From positions 4,579-68,578 of the forward strand of contig CAUZCL010000018.1 in assembly GCA_963578475.1 (NCBI GenBank): DNA of 64,000 nt, in the 5' to 3' direction. Source of the DNA: Acidobacteria bacterium bin61. GTDB taxonomy: Bacteria; Acidobacteriota; Vicinamibacteria; Marinacidobacterales; SMYC01. The notes beneath the pieces were generated by a model that was not told the DNA's origin, ran no database searches, and saw nothing but the letters and a program-made list of their open reading frames with translations. Positions 40,061 through 62,099 of this stretch are shown here, one piece after another; the first letter of the stretch is position 1, and every line of letters starts with the position of its first letter. The position numbers were made by a program, and so were the translations under genes.

Positions 40061-40264
40061 CAGTATTCAGAATTCAGGATCATGGACTCCGCATCCAGTT
40101 GCGGGCTCGGGTTTAACTCACGGTGGGCTCCTAATTATTTTCCTCGACTGAGGATACCGGCTTTCGTGGTCGTCCTATGTCCTTAGGCACTCGCATCTGA
40201 GACAGGCCGACTTCTCAACGGACTGCACAGAGCCCTGTCTCAAGGAGCTGAATGCTGAATGCTG
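40061..40264. repeat. A ~200-bp element bounded by inverted heptad-repeat termini. 'cagtattcagaattcagga' (40061-40079) faces 'ctgaatgctgaatgctg' (40248-40264). An internal hairpin lies at 40191-40246.
   Basis: Direct reading of the sequence. The terminal motifs match the (CATTCAG)n family found at 48116, 49501-49634 and 62081. Confidence 0.6.
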
Positions 40265-40266
40265 TA

Positions 40267-41523
40267 TCAATGAATCTTGGTCGTCTTGCGCTTCACGTAA
40301 TCCATCAGCACGTACTGCCCGAGCTGGGCGGGCGTCGTGAAATAAGCCTTGCCTTGCACGATTTCAGTGACTTTCTTCACGAAGCCCACGAGGGAGTAGT
40401 CGCGCGCGAGCATGAACGTGTTGATCATGATCCCTCTTCGGCGGCATTCGACGACCTGTTTGAACGTCTGGTCGAGGATGAGCGGGTCGAGGCCGAAGGG
40501 GTTCTTGTAGATGCGCCCATCTTCGAGGGTGAGCGCCGAGGGTTTACCATCCGTAATCATGATGATTTGGCGCATGTCGGAGCGTTGGCGCATGAGAATT
40601 TCTTGAGCGAGCCGGAGCCCCTCCGCCGTGTTCGTGTGGAACGGGCCGACTTGAACTCTCGCGAGGCGGGATAAAGGCACTTCCTCGGCGCTGTCGTGAA
40701 ATAGCACCAAATGCAGCTTATCGCCTAGAAATTGAGTGCGGACGAGGTGGGACAGCGCGAGGGTGACGCGCTTTGCCGGGGTGAAGCGGTCCTCGCCGTA
40801 CAGGATCATGCTGTGGCTGCAGTCCAGCATGAGCACGGTCGCGCACGAGCTTCGATATTCCGCCTGGTGCACGTGCAGGTCATCCGGGGTCAGGTTTAGG
40901 GGAACACCGAGTCCTTCGCGCCTCACCGCGGACAGAAGCGTGCGCGAGACGTCCAAGTTCAACGTGTCGCCAAACTCGTAGCGTTTCGAGCTTCCTATGA
41001 CCTCAACGCCTGTCGAGAGCTCCTGGGTCTCGTGCTGGCCGAGGTTCGCGCGTCCCAATCCGCCAAGCAAGTCTTTGAGCGCTTTGAAACCGAGGAAATC
41101 GACTGACTTGTCGGTGAGCTCGAAGCGCATCGAGCGGGGCTGCGCAACATCGCCCATCTCGTCCGTCTCAGGATGCCCCACGGCCGTGAGGTTCGGGTCC
41201 CGGGGCGTAATGTTCACATAGCCCTCGTCCTGCATGCGCTGGATGATCTCGTCGAGAATCTCGCGCAGGCGCGAATCCTCGAAACTCTCGGCATCTCCCA
41301 TGAGCCGCTCGATATCCGCCTGCGTGAGCCTTCCTTGCTGGAGGAGCGCTCTCAGGATGGCCTCTCGGAGCGACTGCATCACGTCGTCCGATAGCTCATG
41401 GAACCCGTACATGTCCTGGAATCCGCTATCGAGGAAGTAGTCCGAGAGCCCTTCGAGCAAGTCGGTGATATCAAAATCGTCGAACAGGTCGGGACGAAAT
41501 TTGCTGTACTTGGTCATCGACAT
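40267..41523 (-). CDS. von Willebrand factor A (VWA) domain protein, partner of the upstream AAA+ ATPase
   Basis: A C-terminal VWA fold (LMLDCSHSMIL...ITDGKPS, with a MIDAS-like DxSxS). The N-terminal acidic helical region is typical of ChlD/CoxE-like partners. Confidence 0.65.
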   Translation of the reverse strand: MSMTKYSKFRPDLFDDFDITDLLEGLSDYFLDSGFQDMYGFHELSDDVMQSLREAILRALLQQGRLTQADIERLMGDAESFEDSRLREILDEIIQRMQDEGYVNITPRDPNLTAVGHPETDEMGDVAQPRSMRFELTDKSVDFLGFKALKDLLGGLGRANLGQHETQELSTGVEVIGSSKRYEFGDTLNLDVSRTLLSAVRREGLGVPLNLTPDDLHVHQAEYRSSCATVLMLDCSHSMILYGEDRFTPAKRVTLALSHLVRTQFLGDKLHLVLFHDSAEEVPLSRLARVQVGPFHTNTAEGLRLAQEILMRQRSDMRQIIMITDGKPSALTLEDGRIYKNPFGLDPLILDQTFKQVVECRRRGIMINTFMLARDYSLVGFVKKVTEIVQGKAYFTTPAQLGQYVLMDYVKRKTTKIH

Positions 41524-41551
41524 CGGACTAGTCCTGGCCCCTAACTTAGTT

Positions 41552-43033
41552 TTAGTTCAAATGCGACTTGGTGTGACCGAGCGGCTCCTCATAGCCGATC
41601 TCCGGCTGCCGCTCCTCGTTGCGATGGTAGCCGCGCTCGTCGTTTCTCGAAATCTTCTTTACACCGGCCAGCCCTTCTAGAAGAAACTCGGCGGCGGAAA
41701 CACGCTCGGGCGTCGAGGATTGCTCGGTCACCGAAACAACAGATGTGCGGGCGAGAAGCCCTGGGATCTCTGCGAGCGCTTGCAAAACTTCTTCCGAAGA
41801 CGCGGTCTCCGGCACGCGGCAATAGCCGCCGCCGTCGAACCATTCGATGACGCTCTCAAAATCCTCGCTCGAGGCGTATTTCTGAAAGGCTGCGCCGACG
41901 GCGCGCTTGATGAGGTCTCGGGCGACGACATCCGCGCCTTTGAGCTCCCCTTCATATTCGAGCTCGAGCTTTCCCGTGATCGCGGGAAGCGACGCATAGA
42001 CGTCCGAAACGCGGAGCGCCGTGGCCGCCTCGCCACGCTCGAGCGCGCGCCGCTCGGCGTTCGAGATGGCGCTCTCGAGCAGCGAGATGGGGAGCCTTTG
42101 GCTGACCCCCGACCGCTTGTCGACGCGCCGATCCGAACGCGCTTGGATGGCCACTTCCTCGACGATTTCCCGAACGTAGTGCGGAATGTGAAGTTCGTCG
42201 CGTCCCGCGCGATCCGTCCAAGCCTCGTCCTTCGTAATCGCGATTGACTCTTCGAGCGTCGCGGGGTAGTGGGTACGGATCTCCGATCCGATGCGGTCTT
42301 TGAGAGGCGTAATGATCCGCCCCCGCGCCGTATAGTCTTCAGGATTCGCGGTAAAGACCATCAAGATGTCGAGCGGCAAGCGTAGCGGATAGCCTTTTAT
42401 CTGAACGTCCCCCTCTTGGAGGATATTGAACAAACCCACCTGGATCTTTCCCGCGAGGTCGGGGAGCTCGTTGATCGCAAAAATGCCGCGATGCGCGCGC
42501 GGCAAGAGGCCGTAATGGATGGTGAGCTCGTCGGAAAGATCGAGCCCGCTTCTGGCGGCGCGGATGGGATCGAGGTCGCCGATCATGTCGGCGACGGTCA
42601 CATCTGGCGTCGCCAGTTTCTCGACGTAGCGGTCTTCTCGATGGAGCCACCGAACCGGCGTCTCGGCACCCTTTTCCGCGACGAGCTTCTTGCAGGCGCC
42701 GCAGATCGGGGCGTGCGGGTCGTCATGGATCTCGCAACCGTCAATGACCGGGATCTCCTCGTCGAGGAATCGGGTCAAGCCGCGGAGCATCCTTGTCTTA
42801 GCCTGGCCGCGGAGCCCCAGGAGAATGAAATGGTGCCGCGACAGCAGCGCGTTCACGACCTGGGGAATAACGGTATCGCCGTAGCCGACGATTCCTGGAA
42901 AAAGCTCCTCTCCCGAGCTCATCTTCAGCATCAAGTTGTCGCGGATCTCGTCGCAAACGGCGCGCGGTTGATGATTCTGCAGTTCACCGAGGGTCTGGGC
43001 TTTGCTCATGATCGGATTATAGCCTGATGCCAT
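41552..43033 (-). CDS. ChlI/BchI-like (COG1239) AAA+ ATPase
   Basis: Walker A region [17 protein letters not shown], Walker [11 protein letters not shown], and the sensor/arginine-finger region. The start is chosen at MASGYNPIM (43033). The ORF in the track begins at a TTG 14 codons upstream. Confidence 0.65.
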
Positions 43034-43051
43034 CTGGGAGACGCTAGTGAA

Positions 43052-43200
43052 CTGTAACAGATACTCGTTGCGCAAATCGCGAGGTCATTTTGTGGGCTGG
43101 CGAGGCGCGAGGACGACGTTATATCTGGATATTACGAGGAATCGCAACAAAGCCAGCGCGCAAAAGGACCCGCGATTTTGGCAGCGAGTATCTGTTACAG
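43052..43200. promoter_or_regulatory. A pair of ~30-bp inverted repeats (43052-43081 and 43171-43200) in the divergent intergenic region between the AAA+ ATPase gene and the BON gene
   Basis: Left arm ctgtaacagatactcgttgcgcaaatcgcg. Right arm cgcgattttggcagcgagtatctgttacag. The two are imperfect reverse complements, 27 of 30 bp. The left arm lies in the 5' UTR of the AAA+ gene. Confidence 0.5.
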
Positions 43201-43249
43201 TCTACTAGTGGTGGTACGCGGGTGCTGGTTGAGTTAAGCTTCTCTCGAA

Positions 43250-43843
43250 ATGTTCTGGTTCGTTTTCCGCATGGTTTTTAGAGCTATCACACTCGTGATA
43301 CTCACGGGCACGGCTCTCGTTTTGTACTACCTCTACGAGTCCGGACAGTTTCCTGTCCTCCAGCACGTCATCGAGGATACTGCCGTGACCGCCTCGGTCC
43401 GCGCGGGGTTCGCCATCCATCGGGATCTCGCCGATCGGCCCATACACGTATCAACCGCCGACAGCGTCGTCACCCTTTCGGGGCGCGTCGCGTCCCAAGA
43501 AGAGAAGGACGAAGCCGAGGCGATAGCAGCGACGATCGAAGGGGTCGACGAGATCGCGAATCATCTCGAGATCGAGCCCGGGCTCGAAGACACCGACGGC
43601 GAAACGAACGACAAAAGCTTCGGTGAGCGGCTCGAGGACGCTGCACTTCTGGCGAAAATACGCACCGCCCTGCATCTCGACAGAGAAGTACGCAAGCTGG
43701 ATGTCGACATACGCGTCTCGTCGGGCCAGGTCATCCTGAGAGGTGAGATCCCGTCCGAGGCGCTGATGGACCGCATACGGACGCGGGTGGCAAGCGTCCG
43801 CGGCGTCGAGCGTCTCGAAGACAAGCTCGAGCTAAAAGAGTAG
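43250..43843 (+). CDS. OsmY-like protein with two BON domains and an N-terminal transmembrane segment
   Basis: Two BON units (ADSVVTLSGRVASQEEKDEAEAIA..., SSGQVILRGEIPSEALMDRIRTRVASVRGVERL). Confidence 0.6.
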   Translation: MFWFVFRMVFRAITLVILTGTALVLYYLYESGQFPVLQHVIEDTAVTASVRAGFAIHRDLADRPIHVSTADSVVTLSGRVASQEEKDEAEAIAATIEGVDEIANHLEIEPGLEDTDGETNDKSFGERLEDAALLAKIRTALHLDREVRKLDVDIRVSSGQVILRGEIPSEALMDRIRTRVASVRGVERLEDKLELKE

Positions 43844-43877
43844 CGACAGGCTCCCCGCCGAAGCCCGAAGGGCGAGG

Positions 43878-44138
43878 CTAGTCTTTTTTGAGGCTGGCTA
43901 CAAGGTCGTCCCGGTCGAACGGTTTTTCCAAGTAGCCGTGGAGAGCGAGCCCCGTTCCGCCCGGAAGGTCGAGGTCGGGAACTAGGGTATCGAAGAGCTC
44001 GCCACGGATGAGCTGAAGCGCCCGCTGAAACTCCACGACCGCCACGACATCAAACCCAGCTTGCTCGAGGAAAATTGTCAGTGTTCGGCGCATGGATGCG
44101 TTGTCTTCGACGATGAGAACACGTTGTGGGTCGATCAT
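43878..44138 (-). CDS. Single-domain response-regulator receiver (CheY-like)
   Basis: RVLIVEDNASMRRTL...DLVVPDLDLPGG. The phospho-acceptor Asp and its neighbouring residues are present. Confidence 0.6.
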   Translation of the reverse strand: MIDPQRVLIVEDNASMRRTLTIFLEQAGFDVVAVVEFQRALQLIRGELFDTLVPDLDLPGGTGLALHGYLEKPFDRDDLVASLKKD

Positions 44139-44341
44139 TTAACTTCGTTAACAAGCAAGAGACGTACCAAATTGGGGCGAGGGTGTAAGCCGCAGCACAC
44201 AAACAACTTGAAGAAACTGGCTTCCGGAACCGATTCAATGCTGTCACTAGCGTGCCACAGGCGAGCCACTTTTTGCCACCCGCCTTCGCCCTTCGGGCTA
44301 TGGCGGGCAGGCCCGCCTTACTCTGGGGTTGGGGGGGGTTG

Positions 44342-44902
44342 TTAGGGGCGGGTGGAGCGCTCGACGTCCACAGCGAGGATGAGGCCCTTGTCGATTAGGA
44401 AAAGGGCGCGCCGCTCATCACCATCATTGAGGGCCCGCCGCGCCTGAGCCACGAAGCCACGGGCGGACGCGAATTGCTGCCGCTGGCTGTCGGAAAGCTT
44501 GCGCGTGCTCAGCGTGCCCATGAGTGAGCCCGCGCGCTCGAGCTTCGTCCAGAGCTCCGGGTCGACACGCTTGCTCCCCGCGCGCCCCCGCGAAGGGGTC
44601 TGAGGCGCTTTGTCGGGAGGTTTGGGCGGTGGCGGAGCCGGAGGCGCTTGTATGGACCCCCCATCAGGGCGGGGCGCGGGCTCTTCGACGGCCGGCTCGG
44701 GCTCCACCTCCACGACAGGTTCTTCAGCAGGCCGTGTCTCTTCGGGCGCTTCAGGCTCCGGATGGTCCTCGCCCGCTGGCGTCGATGCTGCCGCTGGCGC
44801 GCGCGGGAAATCCGCACGTCGGGCGCGCCAACATCCGGCCAAGACGCTGAGCCCGATCAAAAGCAGGACGCTTAGCAGAAGACCCCTCATGCGATGTGGC
44901 AC
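44342..44902 (-). CDS. Proline-rich putative lipoprotein
   Basis: A signal peptide with a lipobox-like LAGC, a Pro/Glu/Ala-rich spacer and a C-terminal helical domain. Confidence 0.4.
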   Translation of the reverse strand: MPHRMRGLLLSVLLLIGLSVLAGCWRARRADFPRAPAAASTPAGEDHPEPEAPEETRPAEEPVVEVEPEPAVEEPAPRPDGGSIQAPPAPPPPKPPDKAPQTPSRGRAGSKRVDPELWTKLERAGSLMGTLSTRKLSDSQRQQFASARGFVAQARRALNDGDERRALFLIDKGLILAVDVERSTRP

Positions 44903-44912
44903 CCGACTTCCG

Positions 44913-46715
44913 TCACGCGCGCATCTCGGGAAGGTGGATTGTGAACCGCGTGCCGTTACCCTTCTCTGATTCTACCGTGATTTCGCCGCCGTGGAGTTGG
45001 ACGATCCGATAGACCATCGAGAGCCCGATACCGCTGCCTTTTTTTTTCGTCGTCACATAAAGGTCGAAGATCTTCTCGAGCATTTCCGGCTCGATGCCCA
45101 CCCCGCTATCCGCGACGACGATCTCGACCCCGTCTTCCGTGCGCGACGCCTCGACGCGGAGCCGCCCCCCTCGAGGCATGGCTTCCTCGGCGTTCTGTAC
45201 GAGGTTCAAAAAGACCTGCTGCAGGAGCTCTCGGTCGCCATGAACAGGGGGAAGCTCCTCTGCTACCGCGGTCTCGATCTCGATACCGCTCGCTTTGGCC
45301 TCCGCCGAGACCAGCCTTTCGACCTCGTCCAACAGCTCCCGCAACGGCACCGAGGTCAATTGCAGATCCTCGGGACGCGTGAAGCGCAAGAATCCTTGGA
45401 TGACTCGATCGAGCCGGCGAATCTCCTTCTCGAGCGTATCGAGCGAGGATTGTGTTTCCGGAGAGGCCCACCTTAGCCTCTCCCTCAAGAGCGCGACATG
45501 GATCACCATGGCATTGAGCGGGTTCTTGATCTCGTGCGCGACGCCCGAGGTCAGCTTTCCGAGCGCGGCGAGCTTTTGCGCGTAGGAGAGCTGAGAGCCG
45601 AGACGCAAGAGCTTCTCCTTGTCGCGCGCACTCACCATCACGCCGGAGACCCCGCTCTCGTCGCGCAGGACCTGCGCGCTCAGCGCATAGACGACCGGCC
45701 GCTTTCCGTTCGCGATCGTTTTGTCGACGGGCCCGACGGGCTCGTCGCGCTCGAGCGCCGTCTTGACGATCTCCGCCACCGGATGCTCTTCCGGAAAAAA
45801 CTCCGCGAAGAGTTTCCCCTGAATCTCGTCTCGCCCGAGACCGAGAAGCTCCGCGGCGCGCTCGTTCAACGACAAGACGCACCCCTCGTTACTAAAAACT
45901 AGAACGGCGTCCGAGAGCCCCCCGAGCATCGTCGACAGCCAGCTCGCATCGTTCTCGCGGACGCTCCTCTGGTCATCGAGCCTTTGGCTCATGCTTGCGA
46001 AAAATTCCGCGACGCGGCTCACATCCGCTTCGCTCTGAAGATCCAGGGGTGGTTCGCCGTCCACGGGTTGGAAGCGGCCGAGCTCGCGGCGCAGCAGCTC
46101 GATCGGAGCCCATAGCCAATTCGCAAAAAAAAGCGACACAAAAAAGGCTGCGACGACAGCGCTCGTTGCAAGCAGCACGTTCTGCGTGACCACACTCCAA
46201 ATCTCTTCCTTCAGGAACAGAGTGGAGATCGCGACGCGCACGACCCCGAAAGGCTCCCCATCGCCGTCGTCGAAGGGCATGGCTACTTCGAGAACGTTGT
46301 GGCCTTGCCTGAGCTCCCAGAGCTGCGCGAGAGGGTTCTTCGCGACGAAGCTCTCGAGCGAAGGGGCCGGCGTGAGCTTGTCTCCGAGCTCGAGGGGATT
46401 GCTGTGGACGAGCGCAAAGCCGTCGCGATCCGTCACCGCGACATACATCGTCGTCGCGGAGTAGCCGACGATGCCTTCGGCGTAATTGCTCAGGGCCGGA
46501 TCCCATGTCAAGGCAGAACGGAGCTCCGCCGAGTCGTTTTGACGAATCACCCGTGAGGCCTGATGGCGGAGTGTTTCGGCCAGAAGTCGAGCGCGGGATT
46601 CTGTCTCGCCGACCGAGAAGCGCACGAGCGCGGTCAGATTTACGAGGCTCGTGGCCAAGGCGACGGTGGCCGCTACCAGCGTCAGACCCGCGATTTGTTT
46701 TCTGCGAAATCCCAC
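44913..46715 (-). CDS. Membrane sensor histidine kinase (PAS, HisKA and HATPase_c domains)
   Basis: The HisKA H-box SGVAHEIKNPLNAM, and the N, G1 and G2 boxes (QVFLNLVQNA, DSGVGI, GSGIGL). A PAS segment and two transmembrane helices. Confidence 0.8.
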   Translation of the reverse strand: MGFRRKQIAGLTLVAATVALATSLVNLTALVRFSVGETESRARLLAETLRHQASRVIRQNDSAELRSALTWDPALSNYAEGIVGYSATTMYVAVTDRDGFALVHSNPLELGDKLTPAPSLESFVAKNPLAQLWELRQGHNVLEVAMPFDDGDGEPFGVVRVAISTLFLKEEIWSVVTQNVLLATSAVVAAFFVSLFFANWLWAPIELLRRELGRFQPVDGEPPLDLQSEADVSRVAEFFASMSQRLDDQRSVRENDASWLSTMLGGLSDAVLVFSNEGCVLSLNERAAELLGLGRDEIQGKLFAEFFPEEHPVAEIVKTALERDEPVGPVDKTIANGKRPVVYALSAQVLRDESGVSGVMVSARDKEKLLRLGSQLSYAQKLAALGKLTSGVAHEIKNPLNAMVIHVALLRERLRWASPETQSSLDTLEKEIRRLDRVIQGFLRFTRPEDLQLTSVPLRELLDEVERLVSAEAKASGIEIETAVAEELPPVHGDRELLQQVFLNLVQNAEEAMPRGGRLRVEASRTEDGVEIVVADSGVGIEPEMLEKIFDLYVTTKKKGSGIGLSMVYRIVQLHGGEITVESEKGNGTRFTIHLPEMRA

Positions 46716-46747
46716 CGGATTTGAAGCTCCCCTCTATTCGGGCCGGT

Positions 46748-48121
46748 TCAAGACGTCTTGCGATATTTCTTGAGCTTGTTGTGAAGCGTCTTGAGGCTGA
46801 TTCCCAATATCTCGGCGGCGCGCGTCTTGTTCTGCCCCGTAGACTCCAGGGTCTTCAAGATCAAATTCTTCTCCGCTTGCTCAACCGTCGTTCCGACCGG
46901 AAGCTGCTCGACGTTTTTCGACGCCAGGTCGTTTCCGGGCTCGAGGACTGACGGCGGCAAATCCTCTCGCCGGAACAGGTCACCCTTCGCCACGATAACA
47001 GCGCGCTCGACGACGTTGCGAAGCTCGCGGACGTTTCCAGGCCAAAGGTAGGCTTTCAAGGCTAGGGCGGCTTCGTCATCCATGCCTTTGAGCGCCTTTC
47101 CGTTTCGCGTATTGAACTCGTGCACGAAAGCCTCGACGAGCGTCGGAACATCCGCGATCCGGTCGCGAAGCGCTGGGAGCTCCAGCGTGAACACGTTCAC
47201 GCGGTAGTAGAGGTCCTCGCGCAAATCGCCAGCGTCGAGCGCCTCTCGCGGATCACGGTTGGTCGCAGCCAGGATACGCACATCCACGCGAATCTCCTCC
47301 TCGCCGCCCAGACGGCGGAAGCTTCGCTCCTCGAGAACGCGTAGCAGCTTCGCTTGCGTCGAGGGAGCCATCTCGGCCACTTCGTCGAGAAACAGCGTGC
47401 CGCCATGCGCCTGCTCAAACAGGCCGCGGCGCCGCCCCTCTGCTCCGGTAAAAGCCCCTTTTTCGTGTCCAAACATCTCGCTCTCGAGAAGCGTTTCAGG
47501 GATGGCAGCGCAGTTCACCGCGACAAACTGTTTCTCTTTTCTCGCTGAGAGCTCGTGAAGCGTCCTCGCGACCATTTCTTTTCCGGTACCGGACTCGCCA
47601 ACGATGAAGACCGAGGCCGCGGAAGGGGCGACTTGGCTCATGAGCTCATAGAGCTCTTTCATCCGATCGCTCGTCCCAACCATGCTCCCGAACCGGCCGA
47701 TCGTCTCGAGATTCCTCTTGTAGCGCTCGACCTCCTCGCAAGCCGCGTTGCGCTCGACGGCCCTTTCGAGCACCTCGCGAAGCTGCTGCGTGTCGACCGG
47801 TTTGGTCAGGTAGTCGAAGGCACCTATCTTCATCGCCTCGACCGCAGTCCCGATGCTGCCTTTGGCCGTTACCATCACAACGGCGAGACGATCGAGCTCG
47901 GAGACGAGTCCGGAGAGAAGACCTAGGCCGTCCATCCGGGGCATCACGAGATCAGCGATAACGACTTGAGGGCGGAAGCTCTCGGCTCGTGCAAGGCCTT
48001 CGACGCCATCGGCGGCCGTATCGGCCTCGTAGCCCCACCCGCGCACGAGCTCGGAGAGACCCTGTCGGGAGCCCGCTTCGTCGTCGACGATGAGAACGCG
48101 TGTGGTCAGCAATTTCAGCAT
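46748..48121 (-). CDS. Sigma-54-dependent response regulator (NtrC family: REC, AAA+ and Fis HTH domains)
   Basis: A REC domain (VLIVDDE...DLVMP), the sigma-54 interaction domain (GESGTGKE, the GAFTGA loop, ESELFGHEKGAFTGA) and a C-terminal HTH. The start codon lies inside the heptad repeat. Confidence 0.85.
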   Translation of the reverse strand: MLKLLTTRVLIVDDEAGSRQGLSELVRGWGYEADTAADGVEGLARAESFRPQVVIADLVMPRMDGLGLLSGLVSELDRLAVVMVTAKGSIGTAVEAMKIGAFDYLTKPVDTQQLREVLERAVERNAACEEVERYKRNLETIGRFGSMVGTSDRMKELYELMSQVAPSAASVFIVGESGTGKEMVARTLHELSARKEKQFVAVNCAAIPETLLESEMFGHEKGAFTGAEGRRRGLFEQAHGGTLFLDEVAEMAPSTQAKLLRVLEERSFRRLGGEEEIRVDVRILAATNRDPREALDAGDLREDLYYRVNVFTLELPALRDRIADVPTLVEAFVHEFNTRNGKALKGMDDEAALALKAYLWPGNVRELRNVVERAVIVAKGDLFRREDLPPSVLEPGNDLASKNVEQLPVGTTVEQAEKNLILKTLESTGQNKTRAAEILGISLKTLHNKLKKYRKTS

Positions 48122-48140
48122 TCAGCATTCAGCATTCAGG
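48116..48140. repeat. Three tandem heptads (cagcattcagcattcagcattcagg) that overlap the start codon of the sigma-54 activator gene
   Basis: On the coding strand the sequence is cctgaatgctgaatgctgaATGctgaaattg. It has three ATGs at 7-nt spacing, and the third is the annotated start. Confidence 0.7.
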
Positions 48141-48173
48141 CGCGACGACTGCGACGTCGCAGCTTGCTGGACG

Positions 48174-48893
48174 CTACTTCCTCTTCAAACGTATTTTTAG
48201 CAGTAGCTCGATTTCTTGCTCGGCAAGGCTGTCGTCGACTTCGATGGTGACCGGGACCTCGATTCGCTGATTCGCTATGGGCCCGGACACACTCGCAGGA
48301 GGTATGGTCGTAGCTTGATCACGAGGCATCGAGATCTGCGTTTTGATGAGCTCACTCAAGTTCTCGGCCGCGCTCCGTCCCTGCTCCGCATCGAACGTGC
48401 CGCCGAGGAAATCCGCTTCGAGATCGCGTACGACGTGTTCTTCGACGGACGGCTCTTTCAGAACCGTCGCCGCCACCTCGACGCCAGCGCCCTCATCGAG
48501 CAGTCCGGAGAACATCGAGTCCTCGGGCGCCTCCGGTGCGGTCGGTGCAGAATCACTCGGGGCGTCTGCTCTGGACTTGGTGTCTTTGGTTGTCGCATCG
48601 TCCAACCTCAAAGCGTCATCGAGGATACTCTCGATGTTGAGGTTTTCGAACGCGTCTAAATCTGCATGGTCATCGTCGTGTGAGGCCACGTTCTCTTTCT
48701 CCGAAACAGACGGCCAAGTGCTGGCAGCCTTGGCTGAAGCGTCCTGGCTGGACGCGACTTGGCTCACCTGAGCCCTTTCTCCAGTACTCTCCGTGACGCT
48801 GGTGGAGACCAGAGACGCAGGGTCGGTCAGCGCCGAGTTTGTAACTGTTTTTTTCGCGCTTGCCCATGGGCGACATCGCGCGGGCTCCGCCAT
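48174..48893 (-). CDS. Acidic, low-complexity hypothetical protein. It overlaps the 3' end of the mglA frame.
   Basis: A 239-aa ORF rich in Asp/Glu/Ser/Ala/Thr and predicted to be disordered, with a C-terminal amphipathic segment. Its start lies beside a T7/A7 homopolymer. The frame relationship with mglA is unresolved. Confidence 0.3.
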   Translation of the reverse strand: MAEPARCRPWASAKKTVTNSALTDPASLVSTSVTESTGERAQVSQVASSQDASAKAASTWPSVSEKENVASHDDDHADLDAFENLNIESILDDALRLDDATTKDTKSRADAPSDSAPTAPEAPEDSMFSGLLDEGAGVEVAATVLKEPSVEEHVVRDLEADFLGGTFDAEQGRSAAENLSELIKTQISMPRDQATTIPPASVSGPIANQRIEVPVTIEVDDSLAEQEIELLLKIRLKRK

Positions 48894-49545
48894 AGCGGTC
48901 GATGACCGACTTCAACACGAGGCCGCTGATCGCTTGGAGCGTCTCCTCAACGCCGATACCGTCTTTGGCGACAGCCTCGTAAAACGGCGCGTTCATCGTA
49001 TTGAGCGCGTCGTTCATCTCCTCCACCGTGCAAACGTCCTCGAGATCACGCTTGTTGAACTGCATGACCATCGGCAGCGCCTCGAGCTTCAGGTCGTGAG
49101 CCGCCAGATTCTCCCGCAGGTTGTCGAGACTCTCCCGATTGGCCTCGGGCATGCTCGGTTGCGAATCCGCGACGAAGACCACCCCATCCGCACCTTTGAG
49201 GACCATCCTCCGAGTCGCGTTGTAGAAAACCTGACCCGGCACCGTATAAAGCTGGACCCGAGTCTTGATCCCGCGGACAATCCCAGCATCAACAGGAAGA
49301 AAATCAAAATAAAGAGTACGATCCGTATCCGTCGCCAGCGTCAACATCCGCCCTGTGTTCTTAATCGGAAGATCTTCGTAGATGTACTGCAGATTGCTCG
49401 TCTTACCAGACAAACCAGGCCCGTAATAGACAATTTTAGCGGTCAACTCCTTCAGAGCGCAATTAAAAAGGACCACTGGTTTACCTTCCGGCCAGATTGC
49501 ACTGAATCTTATAGTGTACCAGCATTCAGGATCAGTGGTCAGCAT
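48670..49545 (-). CDS. mglA: MglA-like Ras-superfamily small GTPase, the mutual-gliding / cell-polarity GTPase family
   Basis: KIVYYGPGLSGKTSNLQYIY (P-loop), DRTLYFDFLP, LYTVPGQVFY, FVADSQ and QFNKRDL are collinear with Myxococcus MglA. Two extra parts are of uncertain reality: the N-terminal 30 aa, which starts in a heptad repeat, and ~70 aa after the conserved end. Confidence 0.65.
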   Translation of the reverse strand: MLTTDPECWYTIRFSAIWPEGKPVVLFNCALKELTAKIVYYGPGLSGKTSNLQYIYEDLPIKNTGRMLTLATDTDRTLYFDFLPVDAGIVRGIKTRVQLYTVPGQVFYNATRRMVLKGADGVVFVADSQPSMPEANRESLDNLRENLAAHDLKLEALPMVMQFNKRDLEDVCTVEEMNDALNTMNAPFYEAVAKDGIGVEETLQAISGLVLKSVIDRYGGARAMSPMGKREKNSYKLGADRPCVSGLHQRHGEYWRKGSGEPSRVQPGRFSQGCQHLAVCFGERERGLTRR

Positions 49546-49634
49546 TCAGCATTCAGGAACTCTCAAGACTGCCACTCTGAGATGGTCGGCAACAGTCCTG
49601 AGAGCATCCTGAATGCTGGATGCTGAATGCTGAT
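49501..49634. repeat. A composite palindromic element. Heptad-repeat arms (49521-49557) face their reverse complement (49608-49634) around a nested inner palindrome.
   Basis: agcattcagg...cagcattcagcattcagg / cctgaatgctggatgctgaatgctg. The inner pair is ctctcaagactg / cagtcctgagag. It lies between the mglA start and the helicase gene. Confidence 0.65.
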
Positions 49635-49657
49635 CTGAGATAAACTCCCAGCACACG

Positions 49658-52030: not shown

Positions 52031-53400
52031 ACACGCGCACGACTCGGGAAAAGCTCGACAAACTCTTTCCTTCGCCCCGCAAACGCAACAATGACTCGCT
52101 CTACAGCCTCGAGAAAGAGGTTCTCGGATCCGAGGCGAGCTCCGAGGGCGAGTTCTCCGTCAAAGAGCGGCTCGAACGTCTCCTCGCCGTCACAAAGGCC
52201 CGTCCCCGCACGTTCCCGTCGCCGGCAATAGCGAGGCCGCCAGCGCTCGAGCTCGGCGAAGTTCTCGACGGCGAGGAAGTCTCGAACGACTTCGGCAGCT
52301 TCTACAGCGTCGACAAGATCTACCCGCTCGCACATTTTCAGGGTCGGATCCAGCTCGCTCGGCTCACGAGCGTTCCGAGAGAAGCGTTCTCGATGCTGTC
52401 ACGCGGCGACGACGTTTTCGAAATTGACTTGAAGGAGGCACTGTTTCTCGACACCGAGACGACCGGGCTCGCGGGCGGCGCCGGCACGTGTGCTTTTCTC
52501 ATCGGCTTGGGGTGGGTCGAGAACGAGAGCTTCGTGCTGCGGCAGCTCTTCATGCGCGACTATGGCGAAGAAGCCGCCATGCTCCATGCGCTCGGTGAGA
52601 TCCTCGCGCGCTTCGAGCTGCTCGTAAGCTACAACGGCAAATCGTTCGACATCCCCCTGCTCGAGACCCGCTTCGTCCTCACGCGACAACGCCTGTCCTT
52701 CGAGCATCTATTGCATTTCGACTTGCTGCACTCGGCACGCAGCCTGTGGAAGGTCCGCATCGAGAGCTGTCGCTTGATGGAACTCGAGCATCGTCTACTC
52801 GGGCTCGAACGCGAAGACGACATACCGGGTCACATGATCCCCGACTTGTTTTTTCGCTTCCTGCGAACAGGAGACGCGATTCGCCTCGACCACGTCTTCC
52901 ATCACAACCGACACGACATCCTTTCGCTCGCCGCTCTCACGATATGCGCCTCGGACTTGCTCGACGAAAGCCATGTTCCAGAGGATCCTCTCGACGATCT
53001 CAGCCTCGGTCGCTTGTTCGAACGCTCCGCGCAGCCCGAACGCTCCATGATGCATTACAGCCGCGCCGTCGAGGCCGGGCTGTCGGGCGCCGCGCGCCGT
53101 CGGGCCCTCGCAGCACTCGCGGACCAGCACAAACGCCGCGGCGATATTGATGACGCGCGCAAGCTATGGGGTGAGCTCGCCGACGGCGAGTCCGTAGAGG
53201 TCGTCCAAGCACTTCACGAGCTCGCGATGCTGAGCGAGCATCGCGAGCGGGACTTCACACAAGCACTCGGCTTGTGCGAGCGCGCGCTTTCCTACCTGGA
53301 CGAGAATTACGAGCTGACGCTCTCGTTTCGCTTCAAGTGGCGTGACGCCTTCGCCCATCGCCGCTCGCGTTTGAAAAAACGCCTTGCCAAGAGCAGATAA
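52027..53400 (+). CDS. mrfB: DnaQ-like (RNase H-fold) 3'-5' exonuclease with a C-terminal helical/TPR-like region (MrfB/YprB-like)
   Basis: The start codon overlaps the helicase stop (ATGA). FLDTETTGL (exo I motif), a downstream YNGKSFDIPLL and HNRHD (exo III-like), and a C-terminal TPR-like helical domain. Confidence 0.65.
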   Translation: MNTRTTREKLDKLFPSPRKRNNDSLYSLEKEVLGSEASSEGEFSVKERLERLLAVTKARPRTFPSPAIARPPALELGEVLDGEEVSNDFGSFYSVDKIYPLAHFQGRIQLARLTSVPREAFSMLSRGDDVFEIDLKEALFLDTETTGLAGGAGTCAFLIGLGWVENESFVLRQLFMRDYGEEAAMLHALGEILARFELLVSYNGKSFDIPLLETRFVLTRQRLSFEHLLHFDLLHSARSLWKVRIESCRLMELEHRLLGLEREDDIPGHMIPDLFFRFLRTGDAIRLDHVFHHNRHDILSLAALTICASDLLDESHVPEDPLDDLSLGRLFERSAQPERSMMHYSRAVEAGLSGAARRRALAALADQHKRRGDIDDARKLWGELADGESVEVVQALHELAMLSEHRERDFTQALGLCERALSYLDENYELTLSFRFKWRDAFAHRRSRLKKRLAKSR

Positions 53401-53410
53401 GCCAGACCGA

Positions 53411-53854
53411 TCACCGCCTCGTGATCGATCGCAGTCGCTCTTCGATCTCGGCGCCTTCTTTCTTGCTGCTGCAGATGATCAAGATGGTGTCGTCCCCGGC
53501 GATGGTTCCCATGACTTGCGGCCACGCGACTTCGTCGAGGCCATGCGCAACGCCTTGCGCGTTTCCCGGAGGGGTCTTGACGACGATCAAGTTATTCGCC
53601 CGCTCGATGGTGCGCACGAAAGCGACAAGGGGGGAGAGGGGGCCATCTCCCAAGGGACCGGCGGTGTAAGAATAGCCGCCGCGCCCGTCCGGTCCTTTTG
53701 CGATACCGAGCGCTTTCAGCTCACGCGAGAGCGTCGACTGCGTCATGGAAATACCGGCTTCGGCCAGCGCTCCGATGAGCTCGCTTTGATTGCGGAGGGC
53801 TCGCGCGCGAACGAGAGACAGGATGATCTCTTGCCGCGTGGTGCGATCCGACAT
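53411..53854 (-). CDS. argR: Arginine repressor
   Basis: An N-terminal winged-helix (RQEIILSLVRARALRNQSELIGALAEAGISMTQSTLSRELKALG) and a C-terminal oligomerisation/arginine-binding domain. 147 aa. Confidence 0.8.
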   Translation of the reverse strand: MSDRTTRQEIILSLVRARALRNQSELIGALAEAGISMTQSTLSRELKALGIAKGPDGRGGYSYTAGPLGDGPLSPLVAFVRTIERANNLIVVKTPPGNAQGVAHGLDEVAWPQVMGTIAGDDTILIICSSKKEGAEIEERLRSITRR

Positions 53855-54099
53855 CAGCCGCCGCTGACAGGAGGAAGAAAAGCAACTTCGTCGTCTGGCT
53901 GGAGCTCCGTTTCTTTGCCGACGAAATCGTGGTTCACCGCGAATTGAAGGGCAGCGCCGTAAGGCTCGAGGCGAGGTTCGTCGCTCACGAGACGCTCCCA
54001 GAGCCCCGTTACCGTCGTACCCGATGGCAGCTCGACTTCCAGTTCTTCCTTGTCCATGACCTCGCGCAAGGCAGCAAAGACGCGTACTCGTACGTTCAA
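53854..54099 (-). CDS. moaD: MoaD/ThiS-family sulfur carrier protein
   Basis: A beta-grasp ~80 aa ending in the diglycine VSGG*. The stop overlaps the argR start. A TTG start is assumed. Confidence 0.6.
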   Translation of the reverse strand: MNVRVRVFAALREVMDKEELEVELPSGTTVTGLWERLVSDEPRLEPYGAALQFAVNHDFVGKETELQPDDEVAFLPPVSGG

Positions 54100-54524
54100 C
54101 GTATTTCCGCCGTTTCCACCGGGCCTTCGACCCAAACTTCGCCGTCATCGAAGACTTCTTTTTTCCAAATTGGAACGATGCGCTTGAGCCGATTGATTGC
54201 GTATTGGCATGCGGCGAAGCTATCGTCGCGATGGGGCGACGAGACTACGATGACCACGCTCGTCTCACCAACATTCAGCCGCCCAACACGATGCTGAATG
54301 TGGAGGCTCTCGAGACCCCAATTCGCCTTGACCTCTTCCCCGATGCGCTCCATCATTTTGACAGCCATCTCCGGATAGGCTTCATATTCGAGGAAGAGAA
54401 CTTTCTTTCCTTTATTGGTGCCTCGCACAATCCCCGAGAACGTCGCGATCGCGCCGTCGCGATCGCTGGCGACGCCTCGTGCAAGCGTTCGCAAATCCAG
54501 AATATCGTGCACGATTTCAAACAT
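54096..54524 (-). CDS. moaE: Molybdopterin synthase catalytic subunit
   Basis: MFEIVHDILDL...VVIVVSSPHRDDSFAACQYAINRLKRIVPIWKKE is a MoaE family member. The start is chosen at the MFEIV Met. Confidence 0.8.
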   Translation of the reverse strand: MFEIVHDILDLRTLARGVASDRDGAIATFSGIVRGTNKGKKVLFLEYEAYPEMAVKMMERIGEEVKANWGLESLHIQHRVGRLNVGETSVVIVVSSPHRDDSFAACQYAINRLKRIVPIWKKEVFDDGEVWVEGPVETAEIR

Positions 54525-54628
54525 AGCCAGTGAAATAGTAGCCTGTCCCGAAGCCCCGAACAAGTTCCTATACGCCTGCCCCAACGGCTTTACCGATCTT
54601 GGGAAGTTGGAAAGGAAGAGAAAAAAGA

Positions 54629-54735
54629 AAGGGGAGGTGGGGATAGGGGGATAAAAAAAGATTAAGAGAATCTTTGTTCTTATCCCCACATCTCCACCCA
54701 TCCCCACCTCCCCTTGCTTTTGCTTTTCCAGCAAC
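54629..54735 (-). terminator. A large GC-rich hairpin followed by a U-tract on both strands. Probably the intrinsic terminator of thiD.
   Basis: On the plus strand, aaggggaggtggggat...atccccacctcccctt forms a 16-bp perfect stem with an inner ggggataa/ttatcccc stem. It is followed by gcttttgcttttcc on the plus strand and tcttttttctcttcc on the minus strand. Confidence 0.5.
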
Positions 54736-54767
54736 TTGCTTTTGTTCTTCCAAGCAGCCCGGCTAGT

Positions 54768-55592: not shown

Positions 55593-55702
55593 GAAGAACT
55601 TATAGCATGCCAACCTTGACGGCAGCGATCTGTTCTCGTATTCTGTTGGCAGAAAGGGGCTTGCCCCTCGCGGGAGCCTGAAAACCTCTAGGACCATGGC
55701 CC

Positions 55703-57640: not shown

Positions 57641-57886
57641 CTCGTCCCCATGAGGCGCCTCAAGAATGGCCAAAGAGGCACAGAGTCACAGAGTTTCGAA
57701 AACACCCACCGCTTCCGCTGGGCACAACGATATGCTCCAGGGAGCTCCCGGCGTCATCGTCCGCGGGACGCTGCTAGCAGCGTCGAACACGGAGGCAACG
57801 ATAAAGGCGGGAGAGTGCTCTTCGCTCGCTCTCGCATTCTCTGTGCCTCTGTGGCCAACCCCCGTTGATTGCGGCCGCAATAGAGG

Positions 57887-59170: not shown

Positions 59171-59246
59171 CGCTTCATCCTAGCTACGCGTCGCGCTCGG
59201 AGCAAGTCTCAGCGCCTTGGCGCCCGCGGAAGAAAAGACGTGTAGA

Positions 59247-59939
59247 ATGCGAGGGGTGGCCAAACAGACTTCCTCTTCCGCTCATCGCCCTTTCGAGGTC
59301 CTCGAGAACATGGTCAAGGGCGGCGAGCTCGATCTCGCACCCAAGACCGACAAGCTCGTGCCACCCCCGTCAAGAGTAGACGGGAACCTCAGCGACGAAG
59401 AAGCCTTCGAGAGCGCAATGGAGGAGGTGCGGCCGCTTGGCTGGAGCTCGACCGCACTTGATTTGACGAAAGCGTTCGAGATTCCCATCTGGTCCGATAG
59501 CAAGTCCGAAGCGCTCTGGGAGCTCGAATCCTTCGTCGCGGGAAGAGGCGAGATGGATCCTTTTGCCACGGGTGAGGGCGTCGAGGGCGCTTCGAGCCGT
59601 CGAAACGAGCGCTACCTAGAACGCCTCAAAAACAGCGACTTCTCCGTTCAGGATCATCTAGACCTGCACGGGCTCGATGCAGAGGATGCGCGAGAAGAGC
59701 TCGCGGCCTTTCTGCGACGCTCGCAGCACAAAGGCTATTCGTGCGTCCGGATCGTCCACGGTCGAGGGAAGCATTCGTCGAGAGAGCCCGCGGTCGTGAA
59801 ACGCGCGGTGCTCCGGTCTCTCTCTTCGCGCAAGATGCGCCGCACGGTGATCGCGTTCGCTTCGGCGCGCTGGAAAGACGGTGGGAGTGGCGCGGTCTAT
59901 GTGTTGCTCTACCGCAAATGGCGACCGGCTCAAAGGTAG
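59247..59939 (+). CDS. Smr-domain protein (MutS2 C-terminal-like nuclease domain)
   Basis: LDLHGLDAEDAREELAAFL...VRIVHGRGKHS matches the Smr consensus. Confidence 0.6.
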   Translation: MRGVAKQTSSSAHRPFEVLENMVKGGELDLAPKTDKLVPPPSRVDGNLSDEEAFESAMEEVRPLGWSSTALDLTKAFEIPIWSDSKSEALWELESFVAGRGEMDPFATGEGVEGASSRRNERYLERLKNSDFSVQDHLDLHGLDAEDAREELAAFLRRSQHKGYSCVRIVHGRGKHSSREPAVVKRAVLRSLSSRKMRRTVIAFASARWKDGGSGAVYVLLYRKWRPAQR

Positions 59940-60997
59940 CGGCGTGAGCGCCTGAGGGCTCCGGCCTCACCGAGCCGTAGCTCGACATCTGGTTCGAGAC
60001 CGAGATCGGAGAATTCTTTCCGCTGGTACTTCGCATATCCGGCCGCCGCAATCATCGCTGCGTTGTCGGTCGAGAGCTCGAGGCTCGGGAAAATAGCGGG
60101 GATCTCGAGGCGGCGGCCGAGCTCGCCGAAGCTAACTCGAAGCTCGCGATTTGCCGCCACCCCGCCCGAGACGACTATGGCGCGCACGCGAAAGCGCTTG
60201 GCGGCTCTCTCAGCACGCATCAGGAGGGTCCTGACGACCGTTCGTTGAAACGCCGCGGCGAGGTCGCAAATATCCGCACGCTCGTTGGGCGCCTCGCCCT
60301 CACGGAGCCCCTCGATCGGACCTTTCTGAATGGCGCGCAAGACCGCGCTCTTCAACCCGCTAAAGCTGAAGTCCTCGCTCCCATCCGAGAACTTGGGCAC
60401 GGTGAAGCTGTGGGCGTTCGCGTCGCCGAGCGCTGCGAGGCGGTCCAGTATCGGTCCGCCCGGATAGCCGAGACCGAGCCGCTTGGCAACCTTGTCATAG
60501 GCTTCGCCCGCCGCATCGTCACGCGTCTTGCCGATGAGCTCGTAGCTCGACGCTTCCTTCATCAGAAACAAGCTCGTATGTCCGCCCGAGACGACGAGAG
60601 AAAGTGCGGGGTGCGGGACCGGCTCAGAGCTTTCGATATAGGCTGCTCGGATGTGGCCTTCGAGATGGTCCACCGCGAGAAGAGGCACATCGCGAGCGAA
60701 GGCGATCGATTTCGCGAACGAGAGCCCGACGAGGAGCGAGCCGATGAGCCCCGGGCCTTGGGTCACCGCCACTGCGTCGATCGCGTCGAGCGCGATCCCC
60801 GCTCGAGCGAGCGCGGTGTCGACGACTGGTCCGATCTGCGTCAGGTGCTGGCGCGAGGCTAGCTCGGGAACGACACCGCCATATGGGCGATGGATCTCGT
60901 CTTGCGACGCGACGACGTTCGAGAGAATCCGTCGACCATCCTCGACGACCGCGGCCGAGGTTTCGTCACAGGAGCTCTCAATGCCAAGAATGAGCAT
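59930..60997 (-). CDS. tsaD: tRNA N6-adenosine threonylcarbamoyltransferase
   Basis: MLILGIESSCDETSAAVV..., the metal-binding HxxxH region and a full-length Kae1/TsaD fold. Confidence 0.85.
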   Translation of the reverse strand: MLILGIESSCDETSAAVVEDGRRILSNVVASQDEIHRPYGGVVPELASRQHLTQIGPVVDTALARAGIALDAIDAVAVTQGPGLIGSLLVGLSFAKSIAFARDVPLLAVDHLEGHIRAAYIESSEPVPHPALSLVVSGGHTSLFLMKEASSYELIGKTRDDAAGEAYDKVAKRLGLGYPGGPILDRLAALGDANAHSFTVPKFSDGSEDFSFSGLKSAVLRAIQKGPIEGLREGEAPNERADICDLAAAFQRTVVRTLLMRAERAAKRFRVRAIVVSGGVAANRELRVSFGELGRRLEIPAIFPSLELSTDNAAMIAAAGYAKYQRKEFSDLGLEPDVELRLGEAGALRRSRRYL

Positions 60998-61017
60998 CTG
61001 GTCAGTCGAGTCGGGGC

Positions 61018-62094
61018 TCAGGCAGCCTGGTGACTCTTCGCGAGCGCTCTGAGCGATTCGTCATACGGAGCTTCCGCCACACCGTTCTCGCAAACGATCG
61101 CGGTGACGAGCCGTGACGGCGTCACGTCGAAAGCGGGATTCCGGATGCGCACGCCTTCGGGTGCTATGCGGACCCCTTGGATGTGGGTCACCTCGTCCGG
61201 CGATCGCTCTTCGATGGGGATCTCTTTGCCCGAGGCGATAGAAAGATCGAAGGTCGATGTCGGCGCTACCGCGTAGAAGGGAAGCCCGTGCTCTTTAGCC
61301 AAGACCGCGACGGAGTAGGTGCCAATCTTGTTGCATACGTCGCCATTCGAAGCGATCCGATCGGAGCCTGTGATCACCATGTCGATCTCGCCGAGCGCCA
61401 TGAAGTGGCCTGCCATGTTGTCAGTGATGAGCGTGACGGGAATGTTGTCCTGGACGAGCTCCCAGGCGGTGAGGCGCGCGCCTTGGAGAAACGGGCGGGT
61501 CTCGTTGGCGAAGACTTCGATCTTCTTCCCTGCCTCGACCGCGGCACGCATCACGCCGAGAGCGGTCCCATATCCGGCCGTGGCGAGGGCACCCGCATTG
61601 CAGTGGGTGAGGATACGCGTGCCATCCGGCACGAGCGCGGCCCCGTGCTCGCCCATTCGCCGGTTGATCTCGATATCCTCTGTCTGAATGGCCATCGCTT
61701 CCCGCTCCATCCCGGCGAGCACCGCTTCGACGCCGCTACTAACGAGCTCTTCGAAACGCTTTGTCATCCGATCGATGGCCCAGAACAAATTGACGGCGGT
61801 CGGTCGCGTGCCCGCCATCAAGGTCGATAGCGATTCCATCGATTGACGAAGACTCTCGGCGTCCTTTTTGCCGGACTGTTTCAGGCCGAGTGCGATCCCG
61901 AAGGCCGCGGTCACACCAATCGCCGGCGCGCCACGGACAACCATGTCTGTGATAGCCGCGGCCACGGCCTCGGCGTTGCGGCAGGAGAGATAGTCCTCCT
62001 TGAGCGGTAGATATCTCTGGTCGATGAGGGCGACGGCATCGCCGTCCCAGCGAATAGTTTCGAGCACAAATCCTCCCTGATCAGCATTCAGCAT
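61018..62094 (-). CDS. mtnA: S-methyl-5-thioribose-1-phosphate isomerase
   Basis: A full-length eIF2B-related MtnA ([12 protein letters not shown]..., ...[21 protein letters not shown]). The start codon is the first ATG of the heptad repeat cctgaATGctgaATGctg. Confidence 0.8.
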
Positions 62095-62099
62095 TCAGG
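62081..62099. repeat. Two tandem heptads (cagcattcagcattcagg) that overlap the mtnA start codon
   Basis: Direct reading of the sequence. It belongs to the same family as the repeats at 48116, 49521 and 40061. Confidence 0.7.

Follow-up and report, generated by a model that had tools for sequence, protein, structure and literature searches.

Short tandem arrays of the heptamer CTGAATG (CATTCAG on the opposite strand) lie at five intergenic loci of a 64,000-nucleotide stretch of contig CAUZCL010000018.1 from Acidobacteria bacterium bin61, the whole of which is called the window here. They raise the question of whether such arrays are switches of the genes beside them, signals of some other kind, or the arms of a dispersed repeat. 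The original prediction described palindromes resembling repetitive extragenic palindromic (REP) sequences or MITEs (miniature inverted-repeat transposable elements), with arrays that supply the start codons of three genes (a sigma-54 response regulator, an mglA-like gene and mtnA) and that could switch reading frame by gaining or losing units. The CTGAATG elements resemble MITEs or REPINs (REP doublets forming hairpins) in form, and belong to a known, poorly understood kind of heptamer repeat. The explanation favoured here, with a little better than even confidence, is that they constitute a lineage-specific, largely selfish family of palindromic repeats whose heptamer arms spread into short spacers and drift by slippage or conversion.

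Heptamer arrays and palindromes in the window

Searching the window for CATTCAGCATTCAG with at most one mismatch gave seven matches against 0.01 expected, a number reached in 0 of 100 shuffles: 40248-61 (-), 48119-39 (+, two overlapping), 49543-56 (+), 49609-29 (-, two overlapping) and 62085-98 (+). The 11-mer CAGCATTCAGG was found 13 times against 0.73 expected. Tandem Repeats Finder reported period-7 arrays at all five loci, together with a degenerate array at 40059-40077, in agreement with the motif positions predicted originally. The window has eight exact doubled heptamers, five of them CTGAATG, and all of the heptamer arrays lie outside its first 40 kb (1-40 kb). As expected of heptanucleotide simple repeats, the units are tandem and head-to-tail, above chance in number, mostly intergenic and amplified in particular lineages. 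Two single inverted units 15 nt apart (acattcag...gctgaatg) also occur at 54272-54300, inside an open reading frame (ORF), and are probably a chance pair.

On the CTGAATG strand each unit parses as C-TGA-ATG, and every ATG has a TGA directly before it in the same frame. Since 7 is not a multiple of 3, a TGA falls in every frame over three units, with an ATG in each unit. The CATTCAG strand is free of stops in all frames.

Paired elements stand at two places. The element at 49.5 kb consists of a left arm at 49520..49557 (+; CAGCATT CAGGAT CAGTGGT CAGCATT CAGCATT CAGG) facing the mglA-like gene, a core hairpin at 49558..49607 (ACTCTCARGACTG...CAGTCCTGAGAG) and a right arm at 49608..49634 (+; C CTGAATG CTGGATG CTGAATG CTGA TC), with the ATG of a helicase gene (49658) 24-28 nt downstream of the right arm. 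It occupies the divergent promoter spacer 49477-49657, and the fold of the segment 49515-49640 is one hairpin with almost perfect pairing (dG -67.2 kcal/mol, z -7.25). The element at 40 kb has a degenerate left arm at 40059..40078 (+; TTTCAG TATTCAG AATTCAG G), a core of 169 nt at 40079..40247 that pairs with itself as a long imperfect hairpin, and a right arm at 40248..40264 (+; (CTGAATG)2 CTG) that ends 2 nt short of the complement of the TGA stop of a VWA gene (40267-40269). The segment 40050-40270 likewise folds as one long imperfect hairpin (dG -77.8 kcal/mol, z -3.2), and the inverted-arm organisation proposed for both loci was thereby confirmed. No second copy of the 169-nt core was found among all loci fetched, which gave array-level matches only. 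The CTGAAT-type reading of the left arm points outward, to a minus-strand ORF of 161 aa (39478-39963). This ORF is the only one in the roughly 0.8 kb of low coding potential (39276-40058) between a tRNA gene and the element; it has no Pfam match, yet was called by the gene callers in three other assemblies.

The array of the sigma-54 response regulator, at 48110..48140 (-), reads C(CTGAATG)3 CTGAAATTG on the coding strand and contains two candidate starts, ATG 48121 and TTG 48112. Behind it, the core at 48141..48173 contains CTGCGACGTCGCAG (48149-48162), a perfect palindrome of 14 nt, as well as a single degenerate inverted unit (48163-48170), and begins 1 nt past the stop codon (48174-48176) of the upstream 171-aa gene. 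The fifth locus is a solo two-unit array, 62078..62099 (-; C CTGAATG CTGAATG CTGA TCAG), directly upstream of the Shine-Dalgarno site GGAGGA (62071-62076) and the GTG (62065-62067) of mtnA.

The arrays are not assembly or adapter artefacts, an alternative that the original prediction had raised itself: they are present in four independent assemblies and in an ortholog about 90% identical. Not one base differs at the 40-kb locus among the window and the JGI, ENA and Logan assemblies; an ENA contig (L112) is identical to the window at the 48-kb and 49.5-kb loci, and a Logan contig (L113) at the 49.5-kb locus. Another ENA contig (L200, ERZ27247690), a strain variant of 99.8% identity carrying the same 40-kb locus, diverges from the window at 38834, where it has a 75-aa ORF followed by an OPT transporter instead of a gamma-glutamyltranspeptidase fragment. 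A tRNA-Ala(GGC) gene lies at 39200-39275 (-), and the interval 38834-39275 may be an island boundary or an integration site beside this tRNA.

A palindromic family with filled and empty sites

Chromosome OZ240210.1 ('Ca. Marinacidobacterales', Acidobacteriota) is 90-93% identical to the window over 44343-52050, and the named closest MtnA homologs are labelled Vicinamibacteria or Acidobacteriota. A cyanobacterial origin of the window was rejected, since sigma-54 machinery is among its genes and its nearest relatives belong to Acidobacteriota. In this clade 31 loci with 50 arrays were sampled, with OZ240210, OZ253507 and SMYC01 taken as 8-kb pieces. The arrays are 2-8 units long. A core of about 50 nt, ACTCTCAAGACTG...CAGTCCTGAGAG, recurs between the same arms at no fewer than ten loci in at least four genomes, namely in OZ240210 (L004, L033, L080, L082), OZ253507 (L037, L051, L064, L078, L094), SMYC01 (L021) and the window. 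When ten copies of the core were aligned, 21 invariant columns flanked a variable middle. The odd second unit of the right arm, CCTGAATGCTGGATGCTGAATGCTGA, is common to several copies, a sign that they were copied from one source and did not arise by independent slippage. Other cores, of an AATATTA type and a GTGATAAAGCTCTCC type, stand between the same arms elsewhere.

Among arrays within 260 nt of each other, no inward-facing pair was listed in the clade, and wherever the core is readable the arms point away from it and it is self-complementary; over 820 aligned positions, cores between paired arms were 65% Watson-Crick self-complementary. As a rule one arm has more units than the other (8/4, 5/2, 4/3). 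In the full set of loci fetched, an outward-facing mate was present for 50 arrays and an inward-facing one for 11, the latter all in other lineages.

Orthologous loci were found by a metagenome scan with the helicase. In the spacer between the mglA-like gene and the helicase gene the element is present in the window, L112, L113 and L082, and there is no heptamer array in L115 (helicase 81% identical) or in L116, L117, L119 and L183 (75-76%), in all five of which the mglA-like gene remains divergent from the helicase. A second site gave the same picture. In L115 the spacer that separates the response regulator from the stop of the 171-aa gene is only 13 nt long, TAG...ATGAACCGC; the same spacer measures 52 nt to ATG 48121 (61 nt to TTG 48112) in the window and 60 nt in L082, and in both it contains one degenerate inverted unit, the palindrome and four units. 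Presence and absence at orthologous sites, as seen in MITEs, thus holds at two loci, and the comparison shows that the elements arrived after the split from the relatives that have none. With a shared core between arms at ten or more loci and empty orthologous spacers in relatives, the dispersed, REP- or MITE-like palindromic build first proposed has stood up well.

Unit number varies from locus to locus, as had been noted, and from species to species. In L082 the 49.5-kb element has four left units to the window's five, its right arm is not the same, and 5 nt of its core are duplicated. At mtnA, two relatives (L194 and L195, 93% identical) have a single unit, cTTGAATGCTGA, against two in the window, and a third (L196, 90%) carries gTTGGATGCTGG at the array position. 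Unit numbers therefore differ between species about 90% identical, and are the same in all four assemblies that represent the strain of the window or a near-strain; a comparison at orthologous loci had been proposed at the outset, and it found variation at the former level and identity at the latter. Once in place, the arms slowly change by gain, loss or overwriting of 7-nt units, on the time scale of species.

Start codons and the question of phase variation

The three positions taken as start codons, 48121, 49545 and 62094, are each the first ATG after a stop in a longest ORF. Since each unit reads C-TGA-ATG, a longest-ORF start inside an array is close to automatic. The proposal that the arrays supply all three starts was correct for the response regulator and failed for mtnA and the mglA-like gene.

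The best 120 homologs of MtnA are mostly 348-352 aa long and cover 100% of the 349-aa product read from GTG 62067. The 40 N-termini that were read align from M/V-[LF]-[ED]-T-I-[RQ]-W, except that a few have longer N-terminal extensions in their gene calls, and the NCBIfam MtnA profile alignment starts at residue 3-4 of the GTG 62067 product. GGAGGA stands 3 nt upstream of this GTG. Because of the homologs of about 349 aa and the GGAGGA site, the true start of mtnA is GTG 62067, and ATG 62094 is an over-extension.

For the mglA-like gene, the supposed N-terminal extension (49477-49545) includes a heptamer unit and is broken in L082 by a frame-shifting 1-nt indel, so that a start at 49545 did not survive the comparison. 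Coding potential selects GTG 49476, with the array 66 nt away, and this start presumably gives an N-terminus of MglA length before KIVYYGPG. The gene most likely begins at GTG 49476, outside the repeat. An ORF caller that settles on whichever ATG comes first behind a stop will draw genes too far out into CTGAATG arrays, as happened with mtnA and the mglA-like gene.

The response regulator is different. In L082 a single start is left to it after the in-frame TGA, the last unit's ATG (CTGGATG|CTGATCACACGC), which bears out a start inside the array. This ATG aligns with TTG 48112 of the window, where a 2-nt insertion puts ATG 48121 in frame too. The N-terminus is MNRVLIVDDE in the outgroup and ML(I/T)TRVLIVDDE where the array is present, and the array has replaced the original start. 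The last-unit ATG is likely also the start of an ApbC homolog (L037) and of an MsbA-like ABC exporter (L106).

The model of phase variation, by which the arrays are contingency repeats and the start codon changes frame when slipped-strand events alter the unit number, draws on a 7-nt unit that is not a multiple of 3 and on unit numbers that differ between loci and between species. Against it, two of the three genes start outside their array, and an in-frame TGA immediately precedes the ATG of every unit; array ATGs upstream of the last unit run into a TGA within six codons. When whole units are gained or lost the junction of last unit and gene stays fixed, and the frame is unchanged. Among consensus assemblies, unit numbers are the same in all four at 40 kb, the 99.8% variant included, while two are identical at the 48-kb locus and three at the 49.5-kb locus (L112 and L113 included). 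The arrays in question have only 2-3 units and stand beside housekeeping or regulatory genes, not beside genes for surface antigens. Contingency repeats lie in a coding frame or between -35 and -10 and vary in unit number within a population; neither was found here, the latter among consensus assemblies. The predicted frame switching is accordingly very improbable, and the differences between species about 90% identical are slow drift.

Proximity to start codons can also be read as a sign that the arrays are cis-acting leaders, either sites in mRNA for a post-transcriptional regulator or initiation signals independent of a Shine-Dalgarno site. At the response regulator the array runs to the start codon without room for a Shine-Dalgarno site. 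At mutM (L048), ATG 925 matches position 1 of the profile and the array ends 7 nt upstream, again without room for a ribosome-binding site. An array near the start takes the place of that site at the response regulator, mutM, L037 and L106, and not at mtnA, the mglA-like gene or the helicase gene. The unit variant CUGGAUG also looks like a putative GGA-type CsrA site. Yet mtnA retains its own GGAGGA, the same genes in close relatives have no arrays, and the genes downstream (helicase, MglA-like protein, response regulator, MtnA, MutM, ApbC) share no common function. Precedents for leaders exist in the TAACTGA repeats of Beggiatoaceae (PMC4679880) and the heptamers near starts in Nostoc (preprint 10.1101/2022.06.06.494920); TAACTGA is oriented toward starts by 147 to 12, however, and the clade arrays show no such bias, with 25 pointing at gene starts and 24 at gene ends. 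We regard a leader role as unlikely.

Position relative to genes, and what the elements may be

Distances from arrays to genes were tallied by hand for each array, with gene calls from a crude predictor of our own. The 25 and 24 just mentioned are drawn from the 50 clade arrays; a gene boundary is no more than 30 nt away for 30 of 49 arrays, and a stop codon no more than 18 nt away for 19 of 49. Half of the arrays pointing at a gene end (12/24) leave a gap of 4-6 nt to the stop codon. With the terminal CTGA included these touch it, and the gene strand then reads stop, TCAG, (CATTCAG)n. This exact register was seen in L037, L043, L050, L057, L063, L064, L075, L080, L094, L095 and L111 and at 40262-40269 of the window, with TGA, TAG and TAA all among the stop codons.

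Such positions would suit hairpins acting on the 3' ends of RNA or in the gaps between cistrons, where, just past stop codons, they could terminate or stabilise transcripts or be processed by RNase III. The 19 arrays close to a stop codon, the very stable hairpins (dG -67.2 and -77.8) and the resemblance of cores in other phyla to GC-rich terminator stems (L001, L039, L072) all point that way. The intrinsic-terminator scan, however, found nothing inside the elements and no T-run after the stems, and one element lies within the divergent promoter spacer 49477-49657. G-U and A-C mismatches in the stems were counted to separate selection at the RNA level from selection at the DNA level: there were 63 against 70 overall, with no excess on either strand, and 27 against 32 on the sense strand, where the lack of a G-U excess is weak evidence as gene calls outside the clade are crude. 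Searching Rfam 15 gave no match at the gathering score and, up to E 10, only chance miRNA-like hairpins (23 bits against a gathering score of 90). A 3'-end function is judged slightly less probable than a leader role.

The same lack of strand asymmetry in the stem mismatches is what sites acting in DNA would show, whether for a global regulator or nucleoid protein, as the MTYCTGA sites of Geobacter are annotated, or by cruciform extrusion. A fixed CTGA core at tandem 7-nt spacing and a paired, inverted layout like that in Geobacter and Xanthomonas agree with this idea. It fits poorly with arms of usually unequal unit number (8 vs 4, 5 vs 2, 4 vs 3) and with orthologous promoters in relatives that have no arrays, and there is no known candidate protein. 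We rate this role a little below a 3'-end function. A scan for sigma-70 promoters found nothing inside the elements.

Under the favoured explanation of a largely selfish palindromic family, a hairpin core with outward CTGAATG arms would be copied into short intergenic spacers. Closeness to gene boundaries would follow from insertion into very short operon spacers, such as the 13-nt spacer of L115. Since the outward reading has stops in all frames and an ATG per unit, and the inward reading has no stop, insertion hard against a gene end should be tolerated. Now and then the last ATG would be captured as a start codon, as at the sigma-54 response regulator. For the most part the elements would be selfish or neutral, affecting expression as a by-product, and would not amount to a designed switch.

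An exact 18-mer of the repeat was found in over 111 stretches of the genome set at species level; about 17 matches are expected by chance in 596 Gb. With multi-copy loci counted by hand among the matches listed, OZ240210 has at least 12 loci, OZ253507 at least 15, CBDCYI01 at least 3 and Acidobacteria SMYC01 at least 7; beyond Acidobacteriota, metagenome-assembled genomes (MAGs) of Armatimonadota and of Bdellovibrionales have at least 4 each, and Lentisphaeria, Gemmatimonadota and Lewinella have smaller copy numbers among these matches. In the arrays of multi-copy carriers the units adjoining CTGAATG are often other NNN-TCAG heptamers. No exact tandem CTGAATG doublet was present in 490 kb of other Acidobacteria loci fetched regardless of motif. 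PLSDB plasmids gave no match to the 126-nt element in a distant blastn search, and IMG/VR viral contigs none to the 18-mer. Lone 18-mer matches inside genes of unrelated genomes (L002, L036, L073, L087) were rejected as evidence of the family, given the roughly 17 chance matches expected. In Lentisphaerae (L006, L011, L092), CATTCAG arrays alternate with GAATTAT and CCCTCGC heptamer arrays in long mixed satellites of hundreds of bases, an architecture unlike the short palindromic elements of the Marinacidobacterales clade.

Several observations weigh against a simple selfish family. Inward-facing heptamer arms are found in L012, L062, L074, L086 and L101 (other Acidobacteriota, Gemmatimonadota, Humisphaera), so the outward rule is clade-specific and the logic of a stop followed by a start facing outward is not universal. 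The presence of the heptamer in multiple copies in unrelated phyla hints at a sequence-specific process or function. The exact stop-codon register in half of the convergent-facing arrays is not explained by simple insertion. At mtnA, 29-30 nt separate the conserved anchors both in the window and in L194/L195; the second unit therefore seems to have arisen in place, apparently by equal-length overwriting and not by insertion. No target-site duplication was seen at the outer flanks of about 12 paired elements, a test limited by fuzzy array ends, and an all-against-all blastp of the predicted proteins of the 31 clade loci, which cover only about 0.3 Mb, returned only small paralog groups and no multi-copy gene like a transposase or REP-associated tyrosine transposase (RAYT) near the arrays. 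A role of the elements in expression is possible.

A more far-reaching reading is that the NNN-CTGA arrays of many phyla (ATGCTGA, TAACTGA, MTYCTGA) are products of one widespread, undescribed process that writes or spreads 7-nt units beside hairpins, with C-TGA-ATG in this lineage as a portable cassette of stops in all frames followed by a restart. If true, this cassette might lodge between cistrons, spare them polar effects and donate start codons. We think this improbable, to nearly the same degree as a 3'-end function and somewhat less so than sites acting in DNA.

The window contains other palindromes and repeats. An inverted repeat at 43044-43208, with 47-nt arms 81% complementary and 71 nt apart, has no heptamers and is a different palindromic feature; it fills the divergent spacer between 41552-43075 (-) and 43250-43843 (+). 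At 43837-44324, 39-nt inverted arms (77% complementary, 410 nt apart), which include the GC-rich, hairpin-like GCCCGAAGGGCGA, surround an 86-aa ORF (43878-44138, -). At 54623-54721, 29-nt arms (90% complementary, 41 nt apart), one G-rich (GGGGAGGTGGGGATAGGGGGA) and the other C-rich, lie within the C-terminal end of ORF 54096-54734 (-). Finally, stretches of about 260 nt at 6086-6349 and 8037-8307 are 89-92% identical and 1.95 kb apart, with a related third pair of 76 nt at 5612-5687 and 6365-6440; they are probably tandem paralogous genes.

Comparison with known heptamer repeats and palindromic elements

Reports of tandem heptanucleotide repeats in bacteria go back to 1990. Mazel is said to have described a cyanobacterial kind in that year, the short tandemly repeated repetitive (STRR) heptamers, and STRR-type units differ from CTGAATG (for example, TTTTGAA). 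A literature search for the literal 14-mers found no published paper on CTGAATG arrays, nor do the heptamer papers cited here mention them. Heptanucleotides are the commonest long simple repeats in many bacteria, according to Mrazek 2007 as reported in PMC4679880.

Among the closest precedents is TAACTGA, which marine Beggiatoaceae, some Cyanobacteria and Bacteroidetes carry a short way upstream of start codons (MacGregor 2015, PMC4679880). It shares the CTGA half (TAA-CTGA vs ATG-CTGA), and like CTGAATG it forms tandem intergenic units (2-6), has stops in the forward reading and none in reverse, and is patchy across phyla. TAACTGA sets often end a few nucleotides from a start without a ribosome-binding site, as CTGAATG arrays do at some genes. 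The arrangement differs: TAACTGA is almost always solo and start-directed (147 vs 12), with one inverted repeat in 170 sets (PMC4679880), whereas CTGAATG arrays are mostly arms of palindromes without start bias (25 vs 24). In contrast to TAACTGA, the CTGAATG unit contains an ATG and can supply the start codon itself.

In Geobacter metallireducens, 15 of the 16 class 3 global regulator binding sites have five tandem copies of MTYCTGA (Aklujkar 2009, PMC2700814); all four classes of site are described as 'mostly found in pairs', and class 3 is drawn folded across strands (PMC2700814). The likeness lies in the multi-copy NNNCTGA heptamer, and the arm variant ATCCTGA of the CTGAATG elements fits MTYCTGA. 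The Geobacter sites belong to another phylum, have a fixed number of five units and are annotated as putative protein-binding sites. The common CTGA half links three separately published heptamers.

Xanthomonas GGGAATC arrays form 70-75 convergent inverted pairs per genome, mostly intergenic, and usually keep the same gene context and the single or paired type in two related species while their length differs (Rehm 2015, PMC4692102). GGGAATC and the Nostoc heptamer GGGGAYT (PMC4692102) are G-rich and form G-quadruplexes, which CTGAATG cannot, and no conserved core is reported between the Xanthomonas arms, unlike the core shared by the CTGAATG elements. The Nostoc heptamers lie near promoters and start codons, overlap the start in four genes and affect reporter output (Pradhan 2022, 10.1101/2022.06.06.494920); they belong to a different phylum, and their regulatory role is suspected from reporter deletions only.

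REPs, REPINs and MITEs, including the Correia elements (Bertels and Rainey 2011, PMC3116915; Di Nocera 2013, PMC3733652), resemble the CTGAATG elements as short, extragenic, hairpin-forming palindromes in many copies that are lineage-specific and present or absent at given sites. As in REPINs, an inverted doublet folds into a hairpin and has many extragenic copies; the arms, however, read CAGCATTCAG... in the copies printed, without the GTAG or CGTC head of REP and REPIN sequences. As in MITEs, there are terminal inverted repeats, here tandem arrays of unequal length and not fixed repeats; unlike MITEs, the elements showed no target-site duplication, and no RAYT or insertion-sequence partner was seen near the arrays of the 31 loci. 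With filled and empty sites, a shared core marking true copies and a documented case of start-codon capture, the clade offers a clean comparative set for this kind of repeat, and the complete chromosomes OZ240210 and OZ253507 are suited to a full census.

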